From an uncultured Desulfatibacillum sp. (lineage in GTDB: Bacteria > Desulfobacterota > Desulfobacteria > Desulfobacterales > SpSt-501): DNA of 53,838 nt. Below are positions 9,741-49,161 of the stretch, piece by piece; positions within the stretch are counted from its first letter, which is position 1, and every line of letters starts with the position of its first letter. The position numbers were made by a program, and so were the translations under genes. The stretch spans positions 9,331 to 63,168 of the forward strand of contig CAZQUP010000008.1 in NCBI GenBank assembly GCA_964596545.1, written 5' to 3'. The notes under the pieces were generated by a model. That model saw only the letters and a list, made by a program, of their open reading frames with translations, was not told the DNA's origin and made no database searches.

Positions 9741-10412
9741 TCAGACGGCGGGCTGCCGCCGAAAGACAAGCGGCTTCCGCAGCAGATAGGCGATCGGCAC
9801 ACTCCAGATGTGCACCAGACGGCAGAACGGGGAATAGGCAAGCAGGGTGAAGGCGGCGAGCACGTGCAGCCGGTAGCGCAGCGGGATCTCCGCCATGAGG
9901 GAAGGATCGGGTTGGAAAACAAGAAGGCTCCGGATCCAAGGGGCGATCGTGTGCAGCACGTCGAAGCCGCCGACAAAGACGCTGTAGGTGCCGATCCCCG
10001 TGACCAGGGCCAGCCCGAGCAGGGTCACGAAATCGCTCGGGCGGCTCATGCGCCGAACCCGCGGGATGAACGTCCGGCGAGCCAGCAAAAACAATGTGCC
10101 GAGGAAAGCGGCGCTTCCGACCACGCGGCCGACGGCATGGGCGATCGCCGTGTGGGCGGCGCTGTCAATCCCTACGGCATCGTAGAGGCTCTGAGGGACG
10201 AGCAGGCCTACGGCGTGACCGGCGAGGGTTCCGAGCATCCCGAAATGGAAAAGAATCGTCCCGGGAAAGAGCCAGCGCTTCTCGAGCAGCTCGCTCGAAT
10301 GCGCGTTCCAGCCGTAGCGGTCGGTGACATAGCGGAAAGCGTGACCGAGGACGAACACGGCGAGGCAGAGGTAAGGATAGGCGACGAAGAGCGCCGTTTC
10401 GGTCGCATTCAT
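9741..10412 (-). CDS. narI: Respiratory nitrate reductase gamma subunit (cytochrome b)
   Basis: SSELLE; four heme-b histidines with spacing H-x9-H (FHFGMLGTLAGH) and H-x17-H (LHV...RLVHIW). Confidence 0.95.
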   Translation of the reverse strand: MNATETALFVAYPYLCLAVFVLGHAFRYVTDRYGWNAHSSELLEKRWLFPGTILFHFGMLGTLAGHAVGLLVPQSLYDAVGIDSAAHTAIAHAVGRVVGSAAFLGTLFLLARRTFIPRVRRMSRPSDFVTLLGLALVTGIGTYSVFVGGFDVLHTIAPWIRSLLVFQPDPSLMAEIPLRYRLHVLAAFTLLAYSPFCRLVHIWSVPIAYLLRKPLVFRRQPAV

Positions 10413-10963
10413 GGCGTTTTCCTTTCCCGGCTTGCCTTCCCCCCGGCCGGCGCAGGAGATGTCGGGAACACCTCGTGCAGAATCTCCAGGGGCACGGCAT
10501 AGGGAGAGCCCCGCTTGCGCAAGGCGGCCTGCAAGTCGGCGACGGCGCCGCCGAGAGCGACGATCTCGCGGCTTGACGCAGCCTCCGGGACGAGCGACAG
10601 AAACTCGAGCAGCAGCGGCAAAAAATCGGGGAGCTCACCGCACGCCGGCTCCCAACCGCAGCTGCGGTAAAGGGCGAGCAGAGCGCAGAGGGCCAGACCG
10701 CGTTCCTCTCCACGCCGACTCCCGTGGGCGGTCAGATTCAGACAACAGGAGGGGGAAAGATCAAAGGTTGCGGTGTACCGCTCCTGCCGCACGAGAAGCG
10801 GCTCCTCGGCCAGTCCCCGCACGAATTCGGACAGGCGTCGGCGTACCGACTCCTCGCCGATCGCCGCAACAGCCTCCCCCAGCGCGGCCTGCGTTTCCGG
10901 CTCGGGGTAGCTCAAGCAGGCGGAGAGGACTCGGAAAATCCACCCTGGCGCATTCGGGTTCAT
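10409..10963 (-). CDS. narJ: Nitrate reductase molybdenum cofactor assembly chaperone
   Basis: LSYP, QERYTATFDL, ERGLAL, ELPDFLPLLLEF. ATG at 10963 overlaps the narH stop; the upstream extension in the ORF track is spurious. Confidence 0.92.
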   Translation of the reverse strand: MNPNAPGWIFRVLSACLSYPEPETQAALGEAVAAIGEESVRRRLSEFVRGLAEEPLLVRQERYTATFDLSPSCCLNLTAHGSRRGEERGLALCALLALYRSCGWEPACGELPDFLPLLLEFLSLVPEAASSREIVALGGAVADLQAALRKRGSPYAVPLEILHEVFPTSPAPAGGKASRERKTP

Positions 10964-12372
10964 GGGAACCCCGCACTTCCCTGTGCCCGAGCCGCCCGGC
11001 GCTCCGGGCCGGGCGGACGCGGGGGAATCACGAAACGCTCCTCCAGAGGAGCGAGAGCCAGCAGGCGGTAGATCGCCCGCAGCCTCTGCGGATCCAGCCC
11101 GGCGCGGGCAAGGCGTCCGCCGTCCAAGGTCTCCCCCAACCGTTCCGCGCGCATGAACGCCCGCAGCAGGATCATCCGTTCCAGGACCTCGCGCACCGGC
11201 TCCTCGTCGCCCGCCGCCAGGAGATTGGCGAGATAGCGCAAAGGAATCCTCATCCCTTCCGGATCCTCCGCGGCCCCCCCGTCGTCGAGGCTTCGTCCGG
11301 GGCTGAGGGGCGGGATGTACCACAACATCGGCAGGGTGCGATATTCGGGATGTAGGGGCAGGGCCAGCCGCCATTTCCGGATCAGCCGATCCACGGGCGA
11401 ACGGCGCGCGGCTTCCAACCACGGCGCGGGCAGGCCCTGGCGGACCGCTTGGGCGGCGACCCGGGGATCCTCCGGATCAAGCAAGAGGTCGCGTTGTGCA
11501 CCGAGAAGACTCCGCGGGTCTTCGACTGCGGCGGCCTCGCGGATGCGCTCGGCGTCATAGAGCAGCACACCCACGTAGCGGATTCTCCCCACGCAACTGT
11601 GCGCACAGAGGGGAGGCTGCCCGGTTTCGACCCGGGGATAACAGAAAAGGCATTTCTCGGCCCGCCCCGCATCCCAGTTGAAGTACGTCTTCTTGTAAGG
11701 GCACCCCGAGACACAGAACCGCCATCCGCGGCAGCGCTCCGCATCCACGAGGACGATGCCGTCTTCCTCCCGCTTGTAGAGGGCGCCGGAGGGGCAGGAG
11801 GCGACACAGGCCGGGTTAAGGCAGTGCTCACAGAGCCGGGGCAGATAAAAAAGAAAGACCTTGCGGAAGTGAAGGAAGGCCGCCGCATCGAGTCCTGCGA
11901 AATTCACGTCCTCCTTGCCCGTCTCGTGTACGCCGGCAAGATCGTCCTCCCAGTTCGGTCCCCAGCGGATGTCCATGGCCGCCCCGTCGAGCAGCGAGCG
12001 GGGACGCAGGGCGGGCTGATGCCGGCCCGCTGGGGAGCAGATCAGGGTTTCGTAATCGTAGCTCCAGGGTTCGTAATAGTCGTCGATCCCGGGAAGATGG
12101 GGATTGTGGAAGATGCCAACCAGCCGCGCGAGCTTGGCCCCGGACCGCAGCCCGAGTCCCCATTCCCGCCGGACCCACCCTCCCCGGCCGATTTCCTGGT
12201 TTTCCCAACGCTTGGGGTAGCCGATGCCGGGCTTGGTCTCCACGTTGTTGAACCACATGTATTCCGAGCCCCGGCGCTGGGTCCAGACGTTCTTGCACGG
12301 CAGGCTGCAGGTATGGCATCCTAAGCATTTATCGAGATTCAGCACCATCGCCAACTGCGCCCTAATCCTCAT
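10960..12372 (-). CDS. narH: Respiratory nitrate reductase beta subunit
   Basis: MVLNLDKCLGCHTCS..CKNVW, CEHCLNPACVASCPSG, CRGWRFCVSGCPY, CLFCYPR. Confidence 0.97.
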   Translation of the reverse strand: MRIRAQLAMVLNLDKCLGCHTCSLPCKNVWTQRRGSEYMWFNNVETKPGIGYPKRWENQEIGRGGWVRREWGLGLRSGAKLARLVGIFHNPHLPGIDDYYEPWSYDYETLICSPAGRHQPALRPRSLLDGAAMDIRWGPNWEDDLAGVHETGKEDVNFAGLDAAAFLHFRKVFLFYLPRLCEHCLNPACVASCPSGALYKREEDGIVLVDAERCRGWRFCVSGCPYKKTYFNWDAGRAEKCLFCYPRVETGQPPLCAHSCVGRIRYVGVLLYDAERIREAAAVEDPRSLLGAQRDLLLDPEDPRVAAQAVRQGLPAPWLEAARRSPVDRLIRKWRLALPLHPEYRTLPMLWYIPPLSPGRSLDDGGAAEDPEGMRIPLRYLANLLAAGDEEPVREVLERMILLRAFMRAERLGETLDGGRLARAGLDPQRLRAIYRLLALAPLEERFVIPPRPPGPERRAARAQGSAGFP

Positions 12373-15300
12373 CCCAGCTCACCTCCTCCGCCTTGCGCAC
12401 GAGGATCCACTCGTCGCGCTGCGAACCGACCGGCCCGTAATAGTTGAACCCGTAGCTCATCTGGGCGTAACCCCCGATCATGTGGGTCGGCTTGACGACA
12501 ATGCGGGTGACGCTGTTGTGGGTGCCGCCGCGACGGCCGGAAAGGGGCGCAAGCGGGGTATGGATGAGACGTTCCTGCGCATGGTACATGAACGCCTTGC
12601 CCCGGGGAATGCGGGGGCTGACGACCGCCCGCGCCATCACCACCCCGTTCACGTTGAAGCACTCGAGCCAGTCCGCATCGCGCACCCCCAAGGCGGATGC
12701 GTCCTCGTCGTTGATCCAGATCGCCTCCCCGCCGCGGAACAGGGTCAGCATGGGAAGGGTGTCCGCATAGGTGCTGTGAATGGACCACTTGGAGTGCGGC
12801 GTCAGGTAATTGAGCAGGAGCTCCCGGCGCTCCCGGCGATCCAGCCGGATCGAGCCCAACGCCGCCGCATCCAGGGCGGGTCGGTAGAGGGGCAGTCCCT
12901 CGCCGAAGGCCAGGATCCAGGGGTGGTCCAGATAGCAGTGAGCGCGACCCGTCAACGTCCGAAAAGGTACCCCGTGTTCGATTTGGATCACAAACGGCGC
13001 GTAGCGTCGCCCCTCGCTTTCAATGCCGCTCCATACGGGGCTGGTGATGATCTTGCGCGGTTGGGCGACGAGATCCTCGAAGCGGAAACTCTCGCCGCGG
13101 CGGGCGGCGCTCAGGTGGGCGAGAGAGAGGCCGGTGCGTTTTTCGAGCGGCGCCCAGGACTTCACGGCGACCGCGCCGTGGGTCTCCGGAGAAAGGGCAA
13201 GGATCGCCTCCGCCACCTGCCGGCCCTCCGCCAGCGACGGCAAACCCCGGGCGATGCCGTCCTCGCCGACGGTGCCCAAGCGCTCCTTGAGAAGCTCGAT
13301 CTCTTCGCGCACCGGCCAGGCGAGCCCTTTCGCTCCGACTCCGGCCTCGGCCGCAAGCGGACCCAGAGCGGTCATCATCCGGAACGTATCGGCCCAGCGG
13401 CGTTCGACCAGGGCGAGCTGCGGCAGGGTTTTGCCGGGAAGCGGTTCGCACTCGCCCCGCCGCCAGTCGCGGACTTCGGGCTGGGCGATCTCGCCGGGGG
13501 TATCGTGAAAGAGCGGGGTCGCCACCAGGTCGCGGCCGGCTTTCAGGTGTACGTCGGCGAGCCGGGAGAAGGCCGCGGCGATGGTCTTGAACTGATCCCA
13601 GTTCGTGCGCGCCTCCCAGGGGGGATCGATCGCCGGCGTGAACGGATGAACGAAGGGATGCATGTCGGTCGTGTTGATGTCATGCATCTCATACCAGCCA
13701 GCCGCCGGGAGGGCGATGTCCGCGTAAAGGGCGCTCGTGGACATGCGGATCTCCAGGGTCACCAGCAGGTCCAGCTTGCCCTCCGGAGCGGGCTCCCGCC
13801 AGAGCACCTCTGTCGGCCGCAGGGGGCTTTCGCGGTTCATCACGGCGTTTTCGGCACCCAACAAATGCTTAAGAAAGTATTCGTGCCCCTTGGAGCTCGC
13901 CCCAAGCAGATTCGCGCGCCAAAGGAAAAGGACACGCGGGAAATTCGCCGGATCATCCGGGTCCTCCACGGCGAAGCGGATTTCCCCCGTGCGCAGCCGC
14001 TCAACGACCCGGGCGATGATCTCCTCATCGCTGCGCGCCCCCTGCGCTTCGGCCTCGCGCACAAGGTCGAGGGGATTGCGGTTGAACTGCGGGTAGAACG
14101 GCAGCCAGCCGAGGCGGACGGCGGTCACGTTGTAGTCGGCCGGATGGCGCGGCAACCCGGAAGGAGCCACCGGGGAGAGCAGGGCATGCGCGTCGAGGGT
14201 GTCGTAGCGGAACTGATCGGTGGCGAAGTACCAGAGGGAGGTTCCGTTCTGCAACCGCGGCGGCCGCCGCCAGTCGAGGGCGAAGGCCAGCTGGGACCAC
14301 CCGGCCTGGGTCCTCACCTTTTCCTGCCCGACATAATGCGCCCAGCCGCCGCCGTTTACACCCTGGCAGCCGCACAAGGTGGTGAGCAGGAGGATGCTGC
14401 GGTAGATCGTGTCGCTGTGAAACCAGTGGTTGGTGCCCGCGCCGAGAAAGATCATCGATTTCCCGCCCGTCCTCGCCGCGTTCTCGGCGAATTCGCGCGC
14501 CACCCGCGCCACCTGCGCGGCCGGAACCCCGGTGATCGCCTCCTGCCACTCGGGCGTGTAGGGCCGTTCGGCGCCCTCCGCCGGATTCCCCGCCACAACC
14601 TTTCCCGTACGCCCGTCGCGGGCGAGTCCCAGATGGGAAGCGAGCAGATCGAAGACGGTGGTGACCGTCAGCTTCCCGGCGGGACCGTGCGCGAATCGAA
14701 CCGGGGTCCTTCCGCGCTGCAGGACGGCTTTTTGCGGAACGCCGAAGAAAGGCGAGAGCACCTCCACCCAGCCTTCGGCCCCTCGGGCGAAGCTGAGCTG
14801 CGGGTCGAGGGGCTCCCCACGGAGGGCATCTTCCGGCTTGAGGTTCCAGCGGCCTTCTTCGGTCCAGCGAAAGCCCAGGCTCCCGTTGGGCACGGCCCAG
14901 CGGTCGGCGGTTGCGTCCCGGACGACCGTTTTCCAGCGCGCCTGGGGAATGTCGATCCCCAGATCGGAGGCCCGCAGGAAACGAGCCGGCACAAAGGCAT
15001 CGCCCCGGGGCTCGAGCAGCACGGCAAAGGGAAGATCGGTGAAGCGTTTGGCATAGGCGATAAATTCGGGGGTTTCCTTTTCGAGGTAGAACTCGCGGAG
15101 AATCACATGCGCCATCGCCAACGCCAGGGCGGCATCCGTCCCGGCCCGTGCGGGAAGCCAGGTGTCGGCGAATTTCACGTACTCGGCGTAATCGGGAGCC
15201 ACGGCGACCACCCGCGCCCCCCGGTAGCGTGCTTCGGTGAAAAAATGAGCATCCGGGGTGCGCGTCATGGGCAGGTTGGTCCCCCAGACGATCATGTAGG

Positions 15301-16063
15301 TCGACTCGTACCAGTCTGCGCTCTCGGGGACGTCGGTCTGTTCGCCCCAGACCTGCGGCGAGGCGGGCGGCAGATCGCAATACCAGTCGTAAAAACTGCA
15401 GAGCACGCCGCCGATCAAGGAAAGGAACCGGGCCCCCGAGGCGTAGCACACCATCGACATCGCCGGAATGGGGGTGAATCCGTAAATGCGGTCCGGGCCG
15501 TGTTTTTGAATCGTGTGCACGAGGGCCGCGGCGATCAGATCGGAAGCCTCCTCCCAGGAGACCCGGACAAAGCCGCCCTTGCCGCGCTCCTGCTGGTAAG
15601 CCCGGCGCTGGGCCGGATCCGAGACGATGCTTTTCCAGGCGGCGACGGGATCCCCCTCCCGGTCAAGCGCCTCGCGCCAGCGCTCGAGGAGAGCGGAGCG
15701 AATCAGGGGATGCTTGAGACGCACGGGGCTGTAGGTGTACCAGGAGCAGCTTGCGCCCCGCGGGCAACCCCGCGGCTCATGATCCGGAAAACCCTCCCCG
15801 CAGCGGGGGTAGTCCGTCCGCTGGACCTCCCAGGCGATGATGCCGTCCTTGACGAAGACATCCCAGGAACAGGAGCCGGTGCAGTTCACCCCGTGAGTGG
15901 AGCGCACCTTCTTGTCATACTGCCAGCGGCGGCGGTAAAGGTCTTCCCATTCCCGCTGCCCGCAGCGCGACTCGGCATGGCCTTGGGAAAAGGTCTCCCG
16001 GCGGCAGGTTCGGCTGAAGGGCCGGAGGAAGCGGAGGCGGGAGAGAAAGCCCGTTTCGTTCAT
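12362..16063 (-). CDS. narG: Respiratory nitrate reductase alpha subunit
   Basis: RSTHGVNCTGSC, EPRGCPRG, SFYDWYCDLPPASPQ.WGEQTDVPESADWY, HYVGQEK. Start trimmed to MNETGF (GGGAGG RBS). Confidence 0.97.
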   Translation of the reverse strand: MNETGFLSRLRFLRPFSRTCRRETFSQGHAESRCGQREWEDLYRRRWQYDKKVRSTHGVNCTGSCSWDVFVKDGIIAWEVQRTDYPRCGEGFPDHEPRGCPRGASCSWYTYSPVRLKHPLIRSALLERWREALDREGDPVAAWKSIVSDPAQRRAYQQERGKGGFVRVSWEEASDLIAAALVHTIQKHGPDRIYGFTPIPAMSMVCYASGARFLSLIGGVLCSFYDWYCDLPPASPQVWGEQTDVPESADWYESTYMIVWGTNLPMTRTPDAHFFTEARYRGARVVAVAPDYAEYVKFADTWLPARAGTDAALALAMAHVILREFYLEKETPEFIAYAKRFTDLPFAVLLEPRGDAFVPARFLRASDLGIDIPQARWKTVVRDATADRWAVPNGSLGFRWTEEGRWNLKPEDALRGEPLDPQLSFARGAEGWVEVLSPFFGVPQKAVLQRGRTPVRFAHGPAGKLTVTTVFDLLASHLGLARDGRTGKVVAGNPAEGAERPYTPEWQEAITGVPAAQVARVAREFAENAARTGGKSMIFLGAGTNHWFHSDTIYRSILLLTTLCGCQGVNGGGWAHYVGQEKVRTQAGWSQLAFALDWRRPPRLQNGTSLWYFATDQFRYDTLDAHALLSPVAPSGLPRHPADYNVTAVRLGWLPFYPQFNRNPLDLVREAEAQGARSDEEIIARVVERLRTGEIRFAVEDPDDPANFPRVLFLWRANLLGASSKGHEYFLKHLLGAENAVMNRESPLRPTEVLWREPAPEGKLDLLVTLEIRMSTSALYADIALPAAGWYEMHDINTTDMHPFVHPFTPAIDPPWEARTNWDQFKTIAAAFSRLADVHLKAGRDLVATPLFHDTPGEIAQPEVRDWRRGECEPLPGKTLPQLALVERRWADTFRMMTALGPLAAEAGVGAKGLAWPVREEIELLKERLGTVGEDGIARGLPSLAEGRQVAEAILALSPETHGAVAVKSWAPLEKRTGLSLAHLSAARRGESFRFEDLVAQPRKIITSPVWSGIESEGRRYAPFVIQIEHGVPFRTLTGRAHCYLDHPWILAFGEGLPLYRPALDAAALGSIRLDRRERRELLLNYLTPHSKWSIHSTYADTLPMLTLFRGGEAIWINDEDASALGVRDADWLECFNVNGVVMARAVVSPRIPRGKAFMYHAQERLIHTPLAPLSGRRGGTHNSVTRIVVKPTHMIGGYAQMSYGFNYYGPVGSQRDEWILVRKAEEVSWDED

Positions 16064-16196
16064 GGCATATGCCTCCCGGGGATCCAGGGAAACGGAAACG
16101 GAGGCCCGCCTTCGGCGGAAGCTCAAGTCTTGCGAAAAGGAGATGTCGGACGGCGAGCGATTTGAGGTTTTGTACTCCGCAGGAGATCGTCTCGCC

Positions 16197-38559: not shown

Positions 38560-38665
38560 GGCCGCCTTGCGGCTTCCCGGCTAAAGGTTTCCGCCGTATC
38601 GTCCGATACTCCGCGTTGAAACCTCGACGATTCGGTGGAACCTTTCGGGGAGTTTCCACTTGCCC

Positions 38666-39583
38666 ATGCTGCCGGTTGAGCCCACCAATCTCGGCCAGAC
38701 GATCGTGATCGAGGGCGAAACCCCCTCGACGGCCGGTTCCTATCACCCCTACCTCACGATCTTTTCCGGACCCCACAGCGGGCGGCGTTTCCGTCTGAAC
38801 TGCGGCCTCACGACGATCGGCCGCTCCCCGAAGGCCGATCTCGTCGTCAACGACAACCGCGTCTCGCGCATCCACTGCACCCTGGAATGGCTCGGCGAGC
38901 AGATCGTGATCGAGGACAAGGGCTCGACAAACGGCACCTTCGTCGACGGCTGCCGCATCGCCCGGGCCGCGCTGACACCGGGGGTCGCCCTGCAGATCGG
39001 GCTTTCCATGATGCGGCTCGAGTTCAAGACCGAGGCCGAAATCCGCATGGAAGAGAGCCTCGTCCACTGCGCCACCTTCGACAGCCTGACCGGGGTCTTC
39101 AACCGCGCCCACTTCCTGCGACTTGCCGCAATGGAGGCGGCCTGGGCCCAGCGCCACGGCCAACCGCTCGGCGTCGTCCTCGCCGACCTCGATCACTTCA
39201 AAGCGGTGAACGATCGCTACGGCCACCTCTGGGGGGATTTCGTTCTGACGAAATTCGCGGGGATTCTCGCGCAGAGCAAGCGCTCGGAAGACTTGCTCGG
39301 CCGCTACGGGGGGGACGAATTCATCCTGCTGCCGCGCGGCGGGATCAGCGCCGAAGATCTCTTTTCCTACTGCGAACGGCTGCGCCGTCGCGTCGAGACC
39401 TGCCCGGTGAGCTTCGACACGGTGACACTCGTGCTCTCGGTTTCGCTCGGCTTCCACCTCGAGCCGATCGGGGAACGATCTCCCGAGGAAGCCCTCTCCG
39501 GGCTGATCGAGCGCGCCGACCGTGCGCTCTATCTCGCCAAAGAGAGGGGCCGCAACCGCACCGAAGGGCGGCCCGCCGCCTGA
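38666..39583 (+). CDS. FHA-domain diguanylate cyclase
   Basis: IGRS..VSRIH..STNGT (FHA); DLDHFK.VND.YGH, RSED I-site, RYGGDEF. Confidence 0.92.
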   Translation: MLPVEPTNLGQTIVIEGETPSTAGSYHPYLTIFSGPHSGRRFRLNCGLTTIGRSPKADLVVNDNRVSRIHCTLEWLGEQIVIEDKGSTNGTFVDGCRIARAALTPGVALQIGLSMMRLEFKTEAEIRMEESLVHCATFDSLTGVFNRAHFLRLAAMEAAWAQRHGQPLGVVLADLDHFKAVNDRYGHLWGDFVLTKFAGILAQSKRSEDLLGRYGGDEFILLPRGGISAEDLFSYCERLRRRVETCPVSFDTVTLVLSVSLGFHLEPIGERSPEEALSGLIERADRALYLAKERGRNRTEGRPAA

Positions 39584-43296: not shown

Positions 43297-43388
43297 ATAT
43301 TAGACGGCGAGAAGGCGAGGTGTCAAGGCAAACCGCCGCGGATCGCCGCCGAGCGCGGAATTGACTTCGGCCGCCCGCAGGTTATCAT
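43297..43388. promoter_or_regulatory. Back-to-back sigma70-like promoters
   Basis: Minus strand: TTGACA(43326-43321)-N18-TAATAT. Plus strand: TTGACT(43361)-N16-TATCAT(43383). Confidence 0.5.
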
Positions 43389-43431: not shown

Positions 43432-44688
43432 ATGCCGGCCGCGGGATCGATCGTGCTCATGGGATCGGGGGAGCTCACCGCCACCATGGTGGAGGTGCAC
43501 AAGGAGAGGCTTTCCCGCCTGGGGCCTCAAGCCAAAGCGGTGTTCCTCGACACGCCGGCCGGCTTCCAGCTGAACGCCGACCAGATCGCCGACCGCGCGC
43601 GGCAGTACTTCCGCCGCCGGGTCGGCTGCGAGCTCACGACCGTCTCCTGGAAGACGCGTGCGCTCCTTTCTTCCCCGCAAGGGGGGCAGGCGCTCGCCGC
43701 GCTGCGCGGGGCCGACTATATCCTGATCGGGCCGGGCAGCCCGACCTATGCCCTGCGCCACTGGCGCGACACCCCCGTTCCCGAAATTCTCGCCCGCCGA
43801 ATCGAGGCCGGCGCCTGCCTCGTCGCGGCGAGCGCGGCGGCCCTCACCGTGGGCCGCTTCACGCTTCCCGTCTACGAGATCTACAAGGTCGGGGAGGATC
43901 CGCGCTGGGAGCCGGGGCTCGATCTTCTTGGCCGCTTCGCACTTCCGCTCGTCGTCGTGCCACACTGGAACAACGCCGAGGGCGGAACCCACGACACGCG
44001 ATTTTGTTTCCTGGGCGAGCCTCGCTTCCGCGTCCTCGAGGCAATGCTCCCGGCTTCGTGCGCCGTGCTGGGCCTGGACGAGCACACGGCCTGCATCCTC
44101 GATCTCGCCGCCGGCGAGGCCCGCGTCCGGGGTACGGGAGGAATCACGCTGCGGCGAAGAGGAAGCGAGCTCCGCCTGGGAAGCGGCGAGCGAATCCCGC
44201 TTACCGTCTTGGGGGAGGATCCCCCCGGCGAACCTCCCCGCTCCCCCTCGCCCCCGCAGCCCCCTGCAGAACGGGAACCCGCGACGGAGGCGTTCTGGTC
44301 CCGCGTTCACGGCCTTGCCGCCTCCTTCCAACGCGGGCAGGACGCAACCGACCCCGCCGCCATGGCGGCGGCGGTGCTTGAGCTCGACGCTTTGCTCTGG
44401 TCCGCCTTCCAGGACATCGAAAACCCCGAGACGCTCGCCCAGGGCCGTGAGCTTCTGCGGGAATGGATCGCCCTTCTCGGGGCCGCCTGCAACGCCTGCC
44501 CCCGCATCCGGCCGGGGGCGATCGCACCGCTGGTGGAGCGGACGCTTCAGTTGCGCGAGGAGATGCGCCGCAACCGCCGGTGGGCCGAAGCCGATCTCCT
44601 GCGGGAGCTGCTCGGCCTTCAAGGCCTCGTGGTCGAAGACACCCCGGCGGGACCGCGGTGGCACCCCGCCGAGGGAGAAGGCCGGTGA
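43432..44688 (+). CDS. Peptidase S51/cyanophycinase-like domain fused to a CysS/YqeB-like C-terminal domain
   Basis: LMGSGE, GPGSP, AASAAA (Ser), VPHW (His), LGLDEHTA (Glu). C-terminus REEMRRNRRWAEADLLRELL..GLVVEDTPAGPRW resembles the cysteinyl-tRNA synthetase tail. Confidence 0.72.
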   Translation: MPAAGSIVLMGSGELTATMVEVHKERLSRLGPQAKAVFLDTPAGFQLNADQIADRARQYFRRRVGCELTTVSWKTRALLSSPQGGQALAALRGADYILIGPGSPTYALRHWRDTPVPEILARRIEAGACLVAASAAALTVGRFTLPVYEIYKVGEDPRWEPGLDLLGRFALPLVVVPHWNNAEGGTHDTRFCFLGEPRFRVLEAMLPASCAVLGLDEHTACILDLAAGEARVRGTGGITLRRRGSELRLGSGERIPLTVLGEDPPGEPPRSPSPPQPPAEREPATEAFWSRVHGLAASFQRGQDATDPAAMAAAVLELDALLWSAFQDIENPETLAQGRELLREWIALLGAACNACPRIRPGAIAPLVERTLQLREEMRRNRRWAEADLLRELLGLQGLVVEDTPAGPRWHPAEGEGR

Positions 44689-45641
44689 TCCCCCACGCCC
44701 GCGCCGAGAGCCTGGAAGGGCTCTCCCGACTTGCCCTCCCCTTCCCCTCTCCGTTTACGCTTCCGGCATGGGTGGAGAGCTGGCGCGAGGCCTTTTCCCC
44801 GAAAGACGATCTCTGGGTGCGCTCCTTTTACGCCGGCAAGGAGCTTCTCGGTGCCGCGGCCCTCCGGATCGAAGGGAGCCGGGGCCTTCTGGCGGGTGAC
44901 CCGGAGCTCTGCGACCACCTCGACCTGCTGCCCGTCCCCGGCCGCGAGCGGCTCTTCGCCCGGGCCGTTCTCGAAACGCTGGCGGCCGAGGGGATCGCGG
45001 GCCTCGATCTCTTCGCGCTGCGGCCCGACGCCGCGGTGCTCACCGCACTCGCCCCTGCGGCCGAAGAGACGGGCCTCGAGGTGGAGATCCGCCAGCGCGG
45101 CCTGCTCTTCGCCCTGGACCTCCCCGCCCGCTGGGAGGACTACCTCGCGCAACTCTCCCCCAAAGAGCGCCACGAGGTTCGCCGCAAGCTCCGGCGCTGG
45201 GAAGAGCGCGGCTTCGCCCCCTTCGAACTGCACGCGGGAAAAGAAGAAGCCGCGGCCGCCGTCGCGATTTTCTTCCGCCTCTTCCGCCGCGGTCGCCCGG
45301 AAAAGGCCGCCTTCCTCACCGAGAGGACGATGACGTTCTTTCGGCTGCTCGCGCACCGGCTGCCGGAGTTCCGGCTGGGGATGGTCCGCGTTGACGGGAC
45401 TCCGGCGGCCGCGGTATTTTGTTTCGATTTCCGGGGGACCCGCTACCTCTACAACAGCGCCTGCGATGCAGCGTTCGCCCCCCTGGGCGCGGGAATGGCG
45501 TGCAAGATCCTGAGCATCCGCGATGCCCTCGCCCGCGGGCTTTGCCGCTACGATTTTCTGAAGGGGGAGGAACCCTACAAGCGCCGGCTGGGCGGAAAGC
45601 CCCTGCCTCTTTTCGGTTGCCGCATCGAACTCGGAGCCTGA
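44685..45641 (+). CDS. GNAT acyltransferase (Acetyltransf_6, CelD/BcsL/Fem-like)
   Basis: LCDHLD, LPARWEDYLAQLS.KERHEVRRK.RR, YDFLKGEEPYKRRLG. GTG start overlaps the upstream stop. Confidence 0.8.
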   Translation: MIPHARAESLEGLSRLALPFPSPFTLPAWVESWREAFSPKDDLWVRSFYAGKELLGAAALRIEGSRGLLAGDPELCDHLDLLPVPGRERLFARAVLETLAAEGIAGLDLFALRPDAAVLTALAPAAEETGLEVEIRQRGLLFALDLPARWEDYLAQLSPKERHEVRRKLRRWEERGFAPFELHAGKEEAAAAVAIFFRLFRRGRPEKAAFLTERTMTFFRLLAHRLPEFRLGMVRVDGTPAAAVFCFDFRGTRYLYNSACDAAFAPLGAGMACKILSIRDALARGLCRYDFLKGEEPYKRRLGGKPLPLFGCRIELGA

Positions 45642-45644
45642 GAA

Positions 45645-46943
45645 ATGAATCCGCCCGCGCCCTCCGCAGCCCTTTCGATCGCGATGATCTCGCTCCACTC
45701 CGGTCCCCTCGGACCCCTCGGGGCGAGCCGTACCGGGGGGTTGAGCGTCTGCCTGCGCGCGCTCGCGCGCGAGTTGGGTCGGGCCGGTCATCGCGTGGAT
45801 CTCTTCGCCCCCCCGCCCGGGGATGCCCACGGGGAGGAGCCGATCCCCCTGGGGCCGAACGTCCGTCTCTTCCCCGTGGCCGCCGGAATTTCCCGCTCCC
45901 CCCACGACCTCCACCGAGGGGCGGAGGGGATCCTGGAAGCCATCGAGCGCCTTCGGGGGCGGGCGGCCGCCCGATACGACCTCGTCCACAGCCACTACTG
46001 GGCCTCGGGACGCACGGCCGAGCTCGCCTGCCGCGCCTGGGGCGTCCCGCATGTCCTGACCTTGCACACGCTCGCCGCCGCCAAACGGCGCTTGCGGGGA
46101 GGCGGGCAGGAGCGGTTCTTCCGCCTTGAGGCCGAGCGCCGTCTCGCCGCCGCCTGCGACGCGCTGATCGTGCCTTCGCCGCAGGAAAAGGAAATCTTGC
46201 TGCGGTTCTGCCCGGCGGCGGCCGACCGCACGGCCGTCGTCCCTTGGGGTGTTGACTTCGAGGGCTTCCGGCCGGTCCCACGGCGGGAGGCGAGATGGCG
46301 GCTCGGCATCCCTCAAGCTTCCGAAGTCGTACTCTACGTAGGAAGAGTCGTCCCGGAAAAAGGCTTGAAACGTCTGTTTTCGGCCCTCGCCCATCTCCGG
46401 GACCGCAAGCGACTTCGCCTTCTCGTCGTGGGCGGCGACGGCGCAGAGGACCCACGGCTGCGCCTGCTCGCCGCTCAAGCCCGGATCCACGGCCTCGAAA
46501 ACCGGGTCACCTTCTGCGGTCGGGCCGAGACGGAAGCCCTTCCCCTCTTTTACAGCGCGGCCGATCTCCTGGCCCTGCCCTCCTCCTACGAGAGCTTCGG
46601 CCTCGTGGTCCTCGAAGCACTCGCCTGCGGCACGCCGGTCGCCGCCACCCCGGTCGGCGCCGCGGAGTTTCTCCTCCGCGACGGGAAACGGGGCCGGCTC
46701 GCCTCCGGCTTCGCCCCCGCCGACCTCGCCCGGGCGATCGCCGATCTTCTCGATACCCACTTGCCCTCGCCGTTCATGGCGGAAGCGCTGCGCCGCTCCA
46801 TTGCAGGTCTCGACTGGAAGCGGACGGCCGCGGGGGTGCTTGCGGTCTACCGGGCGCTGCTCTCCGGCCGAGGGATCAACGCGACTGCCGAGGCCGGGAA
46901 AAGCCTCTGCTGCGGCTGCGGCCTCGGCTGGGGCCACCGCTGA
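45645..46943 (+). CDS. GT4 glycosyltransferase, MshA-like
   Basis: IAMISLHSGPL...GG, YDLVHSHYWASG, HTLAAAK, PSSYESFGLVVLEALACGTPV; these follow MshA signature motifs. Confidence 0.8.
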   Translation: MNPPAPSAALSIAMISLHSGPLGPLGASRTGGLSVCLRALARELGRAGHRVDLFAPPPGDAHGEEPIPLGPNVRLFPVAAGISRSPHDLHRGAEGILEAIERLRGRAAARYDLVHSHYWASGRTAELACRAWGVPHVLTLHTLAAAKRRLRGGGQERFFRLEAERRLAAACDALIVPSPQEKEILLRFCPAAADRTAVVPWGVDFEGFRPVPRREARWRLGIPQASEVVLYVGRVVPEKGLKRLFSALAHLRDRKRLRLLVVGGDGAEDPRLRLLAAQARIHGLENRVTFCGRAETEALPLFYSAADLLALPSSYESFGLVVLEALACGTPVAATPVGAAEFLLRDGKRGRLASGFAPADLARAIADLLDTHLPSPFMAEALRRSIAGLDWKRTAAGVLAVYRALLSGRGINATAEAGKSLCCGCGLGWGHR

Positions 46944-46954
46944 AGGATCTCCCC

Positions 46955-47650
46955 GTGAGCGCCCCCGCCGACGTCCTGGCCATCGCCGCCCACCCGGACG
47001 ACTGCGAGTTCGGAGCCGCCGGCACGATCGCCCGTTGGATCCGCGAGGGGAAATCCGTGGTCTACGTGCTCTGCACGAGCGGCGAGAAGGGAACGAGCGA
47101 CCCGGGGCTTGCGCCCGAGGCCCTGGCCGCGATCCGCGAGGAGGAACAGCGCGCGGCCTGCGCCCTCCTCGGTGTGCGCGAGGCGGTTTTCCTGCGCCTT
47201 CCGGACCAGGGTCTGGAGGACTGCGCCGATTTTCGGCGGCTGCTCGTGCGCCAGATCCGCCGCTATCGCCCCCGCGTCGTTCTCACCTCGGACCCCTACC
47301 GCCGCTACCTCTGGCACCGTGACCACCGCATCGTCGGCCAGGTCGTCCTGGACGCCGTCTTCCCCTGCGCCCGCGACCGGCTGTCCTTCCCGGAGCTCCT
47401 GGCCGAGGGGCTCGCTCCGCACAAGGTGCGCGAGGTCTATTGCTGGGGGGCCGAGGAGATCAACTGCCGGGTCGACATCACGGAGACCTTCGATCTCAAG
47501 ATCGCCGCCCTGCGCTGCCACGGCAGCCAGCTCCGCGATTTCCCCCGCGGCGACCCCGCAGTCTGGCTGCGCGAGCGCTGCCGGGAGATGGCGGCCGGCG
47601 AGTCTTTCGGGTTGGCCGAGGGGTTTCACCGCGTGGAGGCCCCGCCCTGA
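46955..47650 (+). CDS. PIG-L family N-acetylglucosaminyl deacetylase (MshB/BshB-like)
   Basis: AHPDDCEF, TSGEKG, REEEQRAA, HRDH. GTG start at 46955. Confidence 0.88.
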   Translation: MSAPADVLAIAAHPDDCEFGAAGTIARWIREGKSVVYVLCTSGEKGTSDPGLAPEALAAIREEEQRAACALLGVREAVFLRLPDQGLEDCADFRRLLVRQIRRYRPRVVLTSDPYRRYLWHRDHRIVGQVVLDAVFPCARDRLSFPELLAEGLAPHKVREVYCWGAEEINCRVDITETFDLKIAALRCHGSQLRDFPRGDPAVWLRERCREMAAGESFGLAEGFHRVEAPP

Positions 47651-47674: not shown

Positions 47675-48322
47675 TCAGGGTCGCTCTCCGAGAAAGGCGA
47701 TCTGCGAAACCCGCGGCGGACCGACTGCCGGAAGGATCAGGCGCACGACCGATCCGGTCGCAGGGTAGCCGCCCGCGCCGGGGAGACGAAGGCGGGTCTT
47801 GTTTTGCGGGCGAAGCTCCTCCCCCATCGCCCAGAGCAGGGTGAAAACGATCACATCCCCGTGGGTGACGGCGGCCACCGCTCCTCCTTCGTGCCGCCGC
47901 CGCAGGCGCCCGAGGAAACGCACCATGCGCCGCACGATATCCTGCGGCTGTTCGTAAGGCGGGCCCTCGCCGGTATAAAAATCGTCGCGGCGCGCGCCGA
48001 GGATCTCCAGCGGCTCGCCCTCGAAACGCGTGTAGACCTCATCGATCAGGCGCGAGGTGCGCACGGCAAGGCCCGCCTGCAGAGCGGCGATCGCCTGCGC
48101 CGTCTGCCGCGCCCTCAGACGCGGGCTCGCGTAGAGGGCCCGCAGAGGGATCGGGGCCAGCAGCCGCGCCGCCCGGAGCGCCTCCTCCCGGCCGCGGGCG
48201 CTCAAAGAAAATCGCGGCAACCGTCCGTAGAGGATACGTCCCGGATTGTGCACATGCCCGTGGCGCACAAGAAAGACGGTGGTGCCTGCCGCCGGCCGGC
48301 GGCCGAATCCTTCGCCGCTCAT
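47675..48322 (-). CDS. Histidine phosphatase family protein
   Basis: LVRHG, SPRLRARQTA, VTHGD. Confidence 0.88.
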   Translation of the reverse strand: MSGEGFGRRPAAGTTVFLVRHGHVHNPGRILYGRLPRFSLSARGREEALRAARLLAPIPLRALYASPRLRARQTAQAIAALQAGLAVRTSRLIDEVYTRFEGEPLEILGARRDDFYTGEGPPYEQPQDIVRRMVRFLGRLRRRHEGGAVAAVTHGDVIVFTLLWAMGEELRPQNKTRLRLPGAGGYPATGSVVRLILPAVGPPRVSQIAFLGERP

Positions 48323-49161
48323 GGATCGCTCGCGCCTTCCCGCGGAGGACCTCCCCCCCTCAGGAGGCCTTCCTCCCGGAGGAAACTTTCGACGTCCCGA
48401 AAAAACCGTTCCCCCTCGGGCGGGCAGTCGTTGTGGCCCGCATCGTAGGCAATAAGTCTTGCGCGGCGGGAGACGTTTCGAAGCTTTTCGGCATGGCCGA
48501 ACGGCACGATTTCGTCGTGTCTTCCGTGCAGGAGGAGCACCGGCCCGGGATAGCGCTCGAGCGCGGCGAGGTTGTCGAAGGGGTCGCGGATGAGAAAAGG
48601 CGGGGCGAGATAGCGCGCGGCGAAGGCCTTCACGCTCGTGAAACTGGAGAGCAGGATGAGCCCCGCGGCGGGACGTCGCCGCGTGAGGTCGCAGACCGCC
48701 CCGCCGCCGAGCGAGCGGCCCAGGAAAACGATGCGGGCGCGGTCAACCTCGGGCCGGGAGGCGAGCCGGTCGTAGGCGAGATCGAAGGCCTCGGCGATCC
48801 GTCGCTGCGAGGGGGAGCCCTCCGAGCGACCGTAGCCGGGGTACTCGACGAGCAGAAGCCCAAGGCCGAGCTCCCGGAATCGGCCCAACGTTTCGGGCCA
48901 GAAGTCGATCAACTCGCCGTTTCCGTGGGCGAAAAGGATTGTCGGCGACGGCTCCGGGTTCTCCGGCGGGGGAAGGTACCAGGCCTCGACACGGCCGAAG
49001 GAGGCGGCAAGCCACCAGCGTTCGATTTTCCGATCTTCAAGCGCAGGCTCCGCGGGAGCGGGGATCATCCAGCAGGGGAAGAGCACGTGGCGCTGCAGCA
49101 CAAAGAGAAGGAAGCACCAGCCCAGGTAAAGGAGCAGCAGGATTTTCAGGGCCGAAAGCAT
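48319..49161 (-). CDS. Membrane-anchored alpha/beta hydrolase
   Basis: HGNGE, EYPGYG, GRSLGG, HGRHDE, GHND. Confidence 0.88.
   Translation of the reverse strand: MLSALKILLLLYLGWCFLLFVLQRHVLFPCWMIPAPAEPALEDRKIERWWLAASFGRVEAWYLPPPENPEPSPTILFAHGNGELIDFWPETLGRFRELGLGLLLVEYPGYGRSEGSPSQRRIAEAFDLAYDRLASRPEVDRARIVFLGRSLGGGAVCDLTRRRPAAGLILLSSFTSVKAFAARYLAPPFLIRDPFDNLAALERYPGPVLLLHGRHDEIVPFGHAEKLRNVSRRARLIAYDAGHNDCPPEGERFFRDVESFLREEGLLRGGGPPREGASDP

Follow-up and report, generated by a model that had tools for sequence, protein, structure and literature searches.

What does a serine hydrolase do with the anticodon-binding end of a cysteinyl-tRNA synthetase (CysRS), and why does its gene run into that of a putative aminoacyl-tRNA-dependent transferase? 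The question is raised by genes A and B, the first two genes of an operon in a 53,838-nucleotide stretch of DNA (the window) from an uncultured Desulfatibacillum sp. (assembly GCA_964596545.1, contig CAZQUP010000008.1, positions 9,331 to 63,168). Our answer, which we hold at a probability of about one half, is that operon A-B-C-D (43432-47650, plus strand) builds a mycothiol-type aminoacyl-glucosamine-inositol, with gene B as the transferase and gene A as an accessory. Mycothiol-type thiols are regarded as peculiar to actinobacteria and as products of an ATP-dependent ligase. The parts of the operon are as follows.

43432-44688, plus strand: gene A, 418 amino acids, ATG start and TGA stop.
43432-44211, plus strand: gene A residues 1-260, S51 (class I glutamine-amidotransferase-like) serine hydrolase domain with Ser134-His178-Glu217.
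44212-44280, plus strand: gene A residues 261-283, low-confidence linker of about 23 residues, Pro-rich at about 262-283.
44281-44688, plus strand: gene A residues 284-418 and stop codon, CysRS-type helical bundle and anticodon-binding domain without the catalytic core.
44685-45641, plus strand: gene B, 318 amino acids, GTG start, tandem GNAT, FemX/Sbb17-like putative aminoacyl-tRNA-dependent transferase.
45645-46943, plus strand: gene C, GT4 glycosyltransferase, MshA-like.
46956-47650, plus strand: gene D, PIG-L/LmbE-type de-N-acetylase, GTG start read from the sequence.

An earlier, sequence-only reading of this locus had placed a Ser-His-Glu domain at the start of gene A from the strings AASAAA, VPHW and LDEHT. 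These lie in the translation at residues 131-136, 176-179 and 215-219, and the fold around them is that of S51 peptidases. The profile search of domains that it had proposed gave a marginal pass for Pfam Peptidase_S51 (24.2 bits, cut-off 23.9), and a profile built from 87 family sequences was decisive, matching the S51 peptidase 6nqc at E 3e-14. In an AF2 model made with the 87 family representatives (pLDDT 91.9, pTM 0.76), Foldseek placed residues 1-260 nearest to 6nqc (E 1e-13), followed by PepE, dipeptidase E and cyanophycinase (E 2e-12 to 3e-10), and VIA aligned 234 of 244 residues with 6nqc at Z 27.8 and a root-mean-square deviation (rmsd) of 2.4. S134, H178 and E217 align by phmmer with the Ser, His and Glu of PepE, which we take to be its catalytic triad, and are kept in 86, 87 and 85 of the 87 representatives.

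Gene A thus shares both fold and triad positions with PepE aspartyl dipeptidase, cyanophycinase and 6nqc, and differs from them in its CysRS-derived C-terminal module of about 135 residues and in the additional near-invariant residues GSGE 11-14, H187, D188, T189 and C192 (80/87); GPGSP 100-104 is also near-invariant. To our knowledge, no characterised S51 member carries such a module. A zinc/thiolate site made of H187, C192 and H218 was considered and dropped, since these residues are lost rarely and separately, which leaves a metal site unsupported. The Pro-rich linker that had been noted is present, with pLDDT of 58 and 54 for blocks within residues 261-280 and below 50 at 266-272.

The C-terminal tail reads RRNRRWAEADLLRELLGLQGLVVEDTPAGPRW. 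Its terminal motif had been assigned to the anticodon-recognition region of CysRS, and this assignment holds. Pfam CysS_C falls just short on gene A itself (21.8 bits, cut-off 23), although it matched 17 of 24 relatives of odd length, eight of them above the cut-off and the best at 36.4 bits. Such single-sequence matches are marginal. The family profile settles the homology, with E-values against CysRS chains of 3.5e-15 (8qhp), 1e-12 (E. coli 1li5/1u0b), 1.8e-12 and 3.6e-11. In the E. coli enzyme, profile positions 290-414 correspond to residues 331-460, which comprise the helical bundle and the small anticodon-binding domain. None of the 24 odd-length relatives showed a different aminoacyl-tRNA synthetase domain in place of the tail.

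As had also been noted, there is no HIGH/KMSKS core: TIGR00435 matches gene A over model positions 421-464 of 466 only, at 14.2 bits against a cut-off of 340. Judged from the sequence, gene A is without the Rossmann catalytic core, HIGH, KMSKS and zinc site of class I CysRS, and would be unable to charge tRNA. What it does keep are the anticodon-contact residues. In E. coli CysRS, R427 and D436 hydrogen-bond to G34 of tRNA-Cys, W432 stacks on it and R423 contacts it via water, and R439 is one of four anticodon-domain residues chosen for mutagenesis, according to the available portions of PMC12684709 and PMC13449415. The phmmer alignment gives these equivalents in gene A, with conservation among the 87 representatives.

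CysRS R423: gene A R375, kept in 87/87.
CysRS R427: gene A R379, kept in 85/87 (Lys in the other two).
CysRS W432: gene A position 384 (W384), aromatic in 85/87.
CysRS D436: gene A D388, kept in 87/87.
CysRS R439: gene A R391, kept in 87/87.

The retention of the G34-contact residues across the family gives the strongest reason to think that a GCA anticodon is still recognised by the tail, and the tail would then anchor the protein on tRNA-Cys. The Desulfatibacillum genome has an ordinary tRNA-Cys(GCA), found by ARAGORN at C41:19390-19462.

Other CysRS-like tails and unusual tRNA calls were seen along the way. Outside the window, the same genome encodes a second CysRS-like gene (G000:C121:5031-6776, minus strand; L003:1465-3210), joined to the C-terminal half of a CysM/CysK-type cysteine synthase that precedes it, with the N-terminus cut by the contig end. 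Its identity to the true CysRS is 29%, and its TIGR00435 score of 223 bits stays under the cut-off of 340; HIGH, KMSKS and the zinc cysteines look lost and the anticodon-binding tail is kept. This fusion would add a further non-synthetase enzyme that docks on tRNA-Cys. In two gene A relatives (P0196 and P0264), a short S51 domain and CysS_C tail are followed in one reading frame by a family-2 glycosyltransferase domain, either as a true fusion or as a gene-calling artefact. ARAGORN also called a 95-nucleotide 'tRNA-Cys(ACA)' and three long tRNA-Sec-like genes with UCA anticodons (C28:29866-29960, C1:57983-58080, C15:38233-38324 and C45:5980-6063), which could be unusual long-arm tRNAs or false calls.

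Gene B overlaps gene A, the TGA stop and the GTG start at 44685 sharing four nucleotides (GTGA) as the sequence-only reading had it. Pfam assigns it to Acetyltransf_6 (E 7e-26, 91.5 bits), and the source annotation of its relatives is 'CelD/BcsL family acetyltransferase involved in cellulose biosynthesis'. The description of gene B as a Fem-like GNAT agrees with its AF2 model (pLDDT 94.6, pTM 0.91), for which the best Foldseek match is Sbb17/Sba18, an 'aminoacyl-tRNA-dependent peptide synthase' whose structure contains the amino sugar streptothrisamine, followed by FemX, FemA and MprF/aaPGS. In VIA, ranks 1-21 and 23 are all aminoacyl-tRNA-dependent transferases (Z 16.9-21.4, rmsd 3.1-3.9), whereas acetyl-CoA tandem GNATs reach Z 15.0 at most with rmsd 5-7, and MshD gives Z 13.9 and 12.9. 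The model therefore supports for gene B the fold of aminoacyl-tRNA-dependent Fem-type transferases and not that of MshD.

FemX has a catalytic lysine, K305, and a basic tRNA-binding helix. Possible analogues of the two in gene B are the invariant K299 near the C-terminus and a basic helix at 159-175 with invariant R162, R166, R167, K168 and R170. Sbb17/Sba18 and Orf11 aminoacylate the amine of an amino sugar from aminoacyl-tRNA, and an amine acceptor is likewise proposed for gene B. We know of no Fem system with a partner bearing a synthetase anticodon module. In the available part of a review, Orf11 is described as a Gly-tRNA-dependent enzyme that glycylates streptothrisamine (PMC12945691). 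A complex prediction for gene A with gene B scored 0.00, which counts neither for nor against binding.

What would gene B act on? Gene C follows after a gap of 3 nucleotides and contains Glycos_transf_1 and Glyco_transf_4 domains; its best NCBIfam match is MshA (TIGR03449, 253.3 bits over the full length, cut-off 462.5), with BshA at 75.7 bits. Gene D matches PIG-L (E 1.3e-32), with 110.6 bits on BshB1 (cut-off 182.5) and 53.5 bits on MshB (cut-off 224). With an MshA-like glycosyltransferase and a PIG-L deacetylase in the operon, the deacetylated sugar amine that the sequence-only reading had named is a sensible acceptor. An inositol-phosphate synthase gene, Ino1 (PF01658, 112.3 bits), is present elsewhere in the genome (G000:C1), and a phosphatase gene converges on the operon.

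47675-48322, minus strand: histidine-phosphatase gene, convergent with the operon (His_Phos_1, E 1.1e-26).
48319-49161, minus strand: alpha/beta hydrolase gene (Pfam Hydrolase_4 and Abhydrolase_1), overlapping the phosphatase gene by 4 nucleotides.

The set resembles actinobacterial mycothiol biosynthesis (Ino1, MshA, MshA2, MshB, MshC, MshD) in its MshA-best glycosyltransferase, PIG-L deacetylase, genomic Ino1 and adjacent phosphatase, and in the proposed order of events, where a sugar amine would be unmasked and then acylated with an amino acid. It differs in that a Fem-type tandem GNAT would stand at the ligase step and that MshC and MshD were not found. In this genome, whose completeness of 95.6% limits what absences can tell, nothing exceeded the MshC cut-off of 485 (the best matches being CysRS at 202.5 bits and a degenerate paralogue at 114 bits), the best MshD match had 29.8 bits (cut-off 163), and BshC was not found. 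GshA of family PF04262 was also not found; other gamma-glutamylcysteine ligase families were not searched.

We propose that gene C would transfer N-acetylglucosamine (GlcNAc) onto inositol phosphate, to which the Ino1 encoded elsewhere would contribute. A phosphatase, for which the convergent histidine phosphatase is our inferred candidate, would strip the phosphate from GlcNAc-inositol phosphate, and gene D would deacetylate the sugar and free its amine. Gene B would then move an amino acid from aminoacyl-tRNA onto this amine, replacing the ATP-dependent MshC. In gene A, the anticodon module would hold tRNA-Cys while the Pro-rich linker would let the hydrolase domain reach the aminoacyl end; a Cys-acyl-enzyme formed from Cys-tRNA-Cys would be handed on or hydrolysed, linking translation to thiol synthesis. 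For gene A we considered delivery of Cys-tRNA-Cys, its hydrolysis, a tRNA-gated release of cysteine from a compound with a free amine, and an editing role in which tRNA-Cys is cleared of aminoacyl groups that are damaged or wrong. Action on the aminoacyl ester is favoured because of the anticodon anchor, the long and probably extended linker and the exopeptidase-type active site. The presence of gene A is also the only clue that the transferred amino acid would be cysteine.

Related clusters carry further genes that bear on the product. In these, PIG-L follows the glycosyltransferase, and Ino1 lies nearby in five loci (L011, L015, L019, L034 and L054). Phosphatase relatives of at least 100 bits lie downstream in 6 of the 49 nearer gene A loci described below (L009, L010, L029, L034, L043 and L055, among the matches listed), and Pfam finds a phosphatase also in L033 and L034; the phosphatases of related clusters are of the His_Phos or HAD type. 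The three loci most similar to this one (L009, L010 and L055, among the matches listed) also keep the alpha/beta hydrolase gene beside the cluster, and the membership of this gene in the system is uncertain. Small metallo-beta-lactamase-fold genes occur in clusters L013, L014, L033, L100 and L101, and in all five checked the best NCBIfam match is GloB (hydroxyacylglutathione hydrolase/glyoxalase II), at 80-100 bits and under the cut-off. They could encode a glyoxalase II, which would suit a thiol product. Seven loci (L011, L013, L016, L018, L019, L038 and L054) have two GFO/IDH/MocA oxidoreductase genes between the gene A homologue and the GNAT, one with a ThuA-like N-terminal part, and with IolG (inositol 2-dehydrogenase) among the best matches, under its cut-off. 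This pair is absent from the Desulfatibacillum operon, and its insertion in relatives suggests that the products may differ in detail.

Such variation would also fit a cluster that makes a non-thiol glycoconjugate, a solute or envelope component, with gene B using acyl-CoA or another amino acid and the gene A tail binding something other than tRNA-Cys. The frequent oxidoreductase pairs, pathway assignments that are all best matches under curated cut-offs, and the CelD/BcsL annotation of gene B relatives are in keeping with this, as are GNAT-carrying genomes that have no gene A. We nevertheless consider it unlikely: conservation of exactly the residues that contact G34 is hard to explain without a GCA anticodon, glyoxalase-II-like, Ino1 and phosphatase genes lie in or near the clusters, and the GNAT and MshC-like ligases tend to exclude one another.

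Returning to gene B as ligase in a mycothiol-type route, this exclusion was seen in genome samples that also show how far gene A follows the GNAT. In the Desulfobacterota, the phylum of the window, the 301 sampled genomes were distributed as follows.

Gene A present: 34 with GNAT, 4 without, 38 in total.
Gene A absent: 20 with GNAT, 243 without, 263 in total.
All genomes: 54 with GNAT, 247 without.

An MshC-like paralogue (372-377 bits) occurs in two of the four genomes with gene A only and is missing from the other two. Gene A and the GNAT were found in none of 9 sampled genomes of the window's own order and are present in other families of the phylum; this patchy distribution suggests horizontal acquisition of the cluster.

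In the Chloroflexota, gene A and the GNAT were scored as present at E 1e-30 or better, and MshC-like matches at E 1e-105 or better on TIGR03447, a working threshold of our own at which all matches are under the curated cut-off and a few have CysRS-like lengths.

All genomes: 201, of which 92 MshC-like.
GNAT present: 74, of which 8 MshC-like.
GNAT absent: 127, of which 84 MshC-like.
Gene A and GNAT present: 32, of which 4 MshC-like.
Gene A only: 18, of which 17 MshC-like.
GNAT only: 42, of which 4 MshC-like.
Neither gene A nor GNAT: 109, of which 67 MshC-like.

Three genomes flagged as unpublished (G548, G655 and G683) are included, and no count shifts by more than one when they are dropped. 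In this sample, the GNAT and MshC-like ligases come close to excluding each other (8/74 versus 84/127). Five single-contig genomes have the GNAT, no gene A, no MshC-like match and one CysRS-family gene each (317-337 bits), and two genomes (G186 and G077) have GNAT-GT4(-PIG-L)-metallo-beta-lactamase clusters with no gene A match. The GNAT thus behaves as an alternative to MshC that can work without gene A.

Gene A, for its part, accompanies either ligase. The GNAT or an MshC-like match is present in 49 of its 50 Chloroflexota carriers, compared with 109 of 151 non-carriers, and gene A occurs in one of the 43 genomes with neither ligase type. Among Actinomycetota, 13 of 201 genomes have gene A. 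Five gene A carriers of this phylum were checked: two have MshC over the cut-off (666 and 667 bits), the rest have MshC-like matches (405-418 bits), and the GNAT search gave nothing better than 42.7 bits in any of them. Two Dormibacterota-type genomes and one Chloroflexota genome with gene A show the same pattern of MshC or MshC-like and no GNAT. In two others (G309 and G310), gene A is present, the GNAT is encoded elsewhere in the genome and there is only one CysRS-family gene. Gene A looks optional, an accessory all but confined to genomes with one or the other Cys-GlcN-type ligase.

These patterns bear on the suggestion that either gene A or the GNAT moves cysteine, of which the second half is now favoured and the first fares poorly. 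Were gene A the cysteine transferase, a Ser134 acyl-enzyme with cysteine drawn from Cys-tRNA-Cys would be resolved through aminolysis by the amine of GlcN-inositol, and gene B would then cap the Cys amine with a second amino acid or acyl group as an MshD analogue. The idea draws on S51 enzymes being exopeptidases with a serine acyl-enzyme and free alpha-amine substrates (family knowledge), on the near-invariant triad and anticodon residues, on the translational coupling of the two genes, on the GNAT in 34 of 38 gene A genomes of the window's phylum, and on the failure to find MshD in the Desulfatibacillum genome. We regard it as improbable. It would leave the five single-contig GNAT genomes with no ligase, it makes gene A redundant in 17 of 18 Chloroflexota with gene A and no GNAT and in 5 of 5 checked Actinomycetota, all with MshC or MshC-like enzymes, and it sits badly with a gene B far nearer to Fem/Sbb17 than to MshD (Z 21.4 versus 13.9). 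Clusters with the GNAT and with neither gene A nor MshC, together with the near-exclusion, favour gene B as the transferase and make gene A an unlikely one. Since gene A keeps its key residues in genomes with MshC and no GNAT, it appears to be an accessory with an activity of its own and not a ligase.

Could that activity lie outside biosynthesis altogether? The gene A family has many members: of 8000 candidates scored, 7974 matched at E 0.001 or better. In a clustering at 50% identity, 1631 clusters reached E 0.001 and 462 reached E 1e-30. A scan of species genomes gave at least 587 confirmed relatives among at least 600 matching stretches, and 80 loci were examined. Among the 49 nearer loci (L009-L057: Desulfobacterota-type, Nitrospirota, Nitrospinota and others), the matches listed include the GNAT in 35, GT4 in 32, both in 31 and neither in 13, several of the last being short; gene A is on the same strand as and upstream of the GNAT in 33 of the 35 linked loci. 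The other 31 loci (L058-L088) are more distant and come from Chloroflexota, Dormibacterota-type bacteria and Actinomycetota. S134, H178, E217, R375, D388, R391, D403 and W410 are kept in all 66 locus copies compared, 35 of them GNAT-linked and 31 unlinked, and only 7 positions are group-specific, all conservative. With identical key residues in both groups, the gene A proteins seem to share a single activity that does not depend on gene B.

Such independence would be expected of a tRNA-Cys-gated amidase that frees cysteine from Cys-GlcN-inositol, the thiol pool then serving as a cysteine store, or of a tRNA-Cys editing deacylase, accompanying MshC-type and Fem-type pathways alike. This is a possibility that we hold tentatively, below the reading set out above. 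The characterised S51 members are, as far as we know, all hydrolases of amide bonds beside a free amine, gene A turns up alongside both types of ligase (one or the other in 49/50 carriers versus 109/151 non-carriers), and its patchiness in Actinomycetota (13/201) is as expected of an optional accessory. A degradative enzyme would be unusual, however, as the first gene of an operon and translationally coupled to the ligase candidate, and gene A shares the locus with the GNAT in 35 of 49 nearer loci, mostly in the order given above. An anticodon reader alone also cannot sense charging. For editing, no candidate wrong substrate was identified; the SepRS-type indirect Cys-tRNA pathway was considered as a source, and SepRS was not found in the Desulfatibacillum genome (28 bits).

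Several points weigh against gene B as a Fem-type ligase in a mycothiol-type pathway with gene A as its accessory. Unlike FemABX, Sbb17/Sba18 and MprF, gene B is filed under Acetyltransf_6; it reaches 22.9 bits on FemAB_like (cut-off 27), and its profile found no Fem protein in the PDB, so the Fem link is drawn from the fold. The MshA, MshB and BshB matches of genes C and D all lie under the equivalog cut-offs, and the MshC-like class is our own. In VIA, residues 289-413 of the gene A model align with 1u0b_B 332-461 at a middling Z of 8.5 over 117 residues and with a large rmsd of 13.6 Å, which suggests that the two tail sub-domains are probably placed differently than in CysRS. Gene A is missing from 42 of the 74 GNAT-carrying Chloroflexota genomes, for which cysteine cannot be inferred. 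Neither the GNAT nor GT4 was found in any of the 31 more distant gene A loci (among the matches listed), whose neighbourhoods are unrelated, and together with the co-occurrence with true MshC this means that the link of gene A to the Fem-type route is not general. The sampled genomes are related, so that their counts overstate independence and Fisher tests on them overstate significance. The incompleteness of the Desulfatibacillum genome belongs here as well.

A search of the distant loci for another conserved gene A partner gave no pattern: QueG is divergently adjacent in two Dormibacterota-type loci, and elsewhere redoxins, ClpS and GGDEF-EAL proteins occur, among others.

If gene B is the ligase, the tRNA-dependent route would be a new way of building a redox cofactor, for which the Chloroflexota sample offers 74 candidate genomes among 201 and the sample of the window's phylum 54 among 301. 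A bolder and rather doubtful extension is that many Desulfobacterota-type, Nitrospirota, Chloroflexota and other anaerobic or soil bacteria make an undescribed low-molecular-weight thiol from Cys-tRNA-Cys, with gene A as a new enzyme class in which an anticodon-docked serine acyl-transfer domain shuttles cysteine between tRNA-Cys and the thiol pool. The tRNA-dependent route would also name the missing thiol of many glutathione-free anaerobes. Gene A would be, as far as we know, the first enzyme of hydrolase type that a synthetase anticodon module directs to one tRNA. The phyletic patterns predict that gene B is the ligase and that gene A is dispensable for synthesis, yet tied to makers of Cys-GlcN-type thiols. 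Full-text searches, with subscription journals mostly outside coverage and supplements excluded, turned up no report of an S51 domain fused to a CysRS tail or of a mycothiol-like route that depends on tRNA, and the gene A family, with its 462 clusters, is unstudied in the literature searched. PMC2922099 treats MshC and Fem ligases, and its available text makes no mention of S51 or cyanophycinase.

One feature lies immediately 5' of the operon.

43361-43388, plus strand: sigma-70-like promoter match TTGACT-16-TATCAT, 44 nucleotides 5' of gene A.

This is a consensus match only, with 10 of 12 consensus positions matched; the region has 3 such sites against 0.3 expected from shuffles. Also 5' of the operon, on the minus strand, Pfam identifies a TAXI-type TRAP transporter. 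Elsewhere in the window, the genes narGHJI for the alpha, beta, delta and gamma subunits of a respiratory nitrate reductase (assigned by Pfam) form an operon at 9741-16126 on the minus strand, and an FHA domain is joined to a GGDEF diguanylate cyclase domain at 38660-39583 on the plus strand. The first 2000 nucleotides of the window, with DctM and DctQ TRAP transporter genes, have a G+C content of 43.5%, compared with about 65% elsewhere in the window, and may be foreign DNA or an assembly join.

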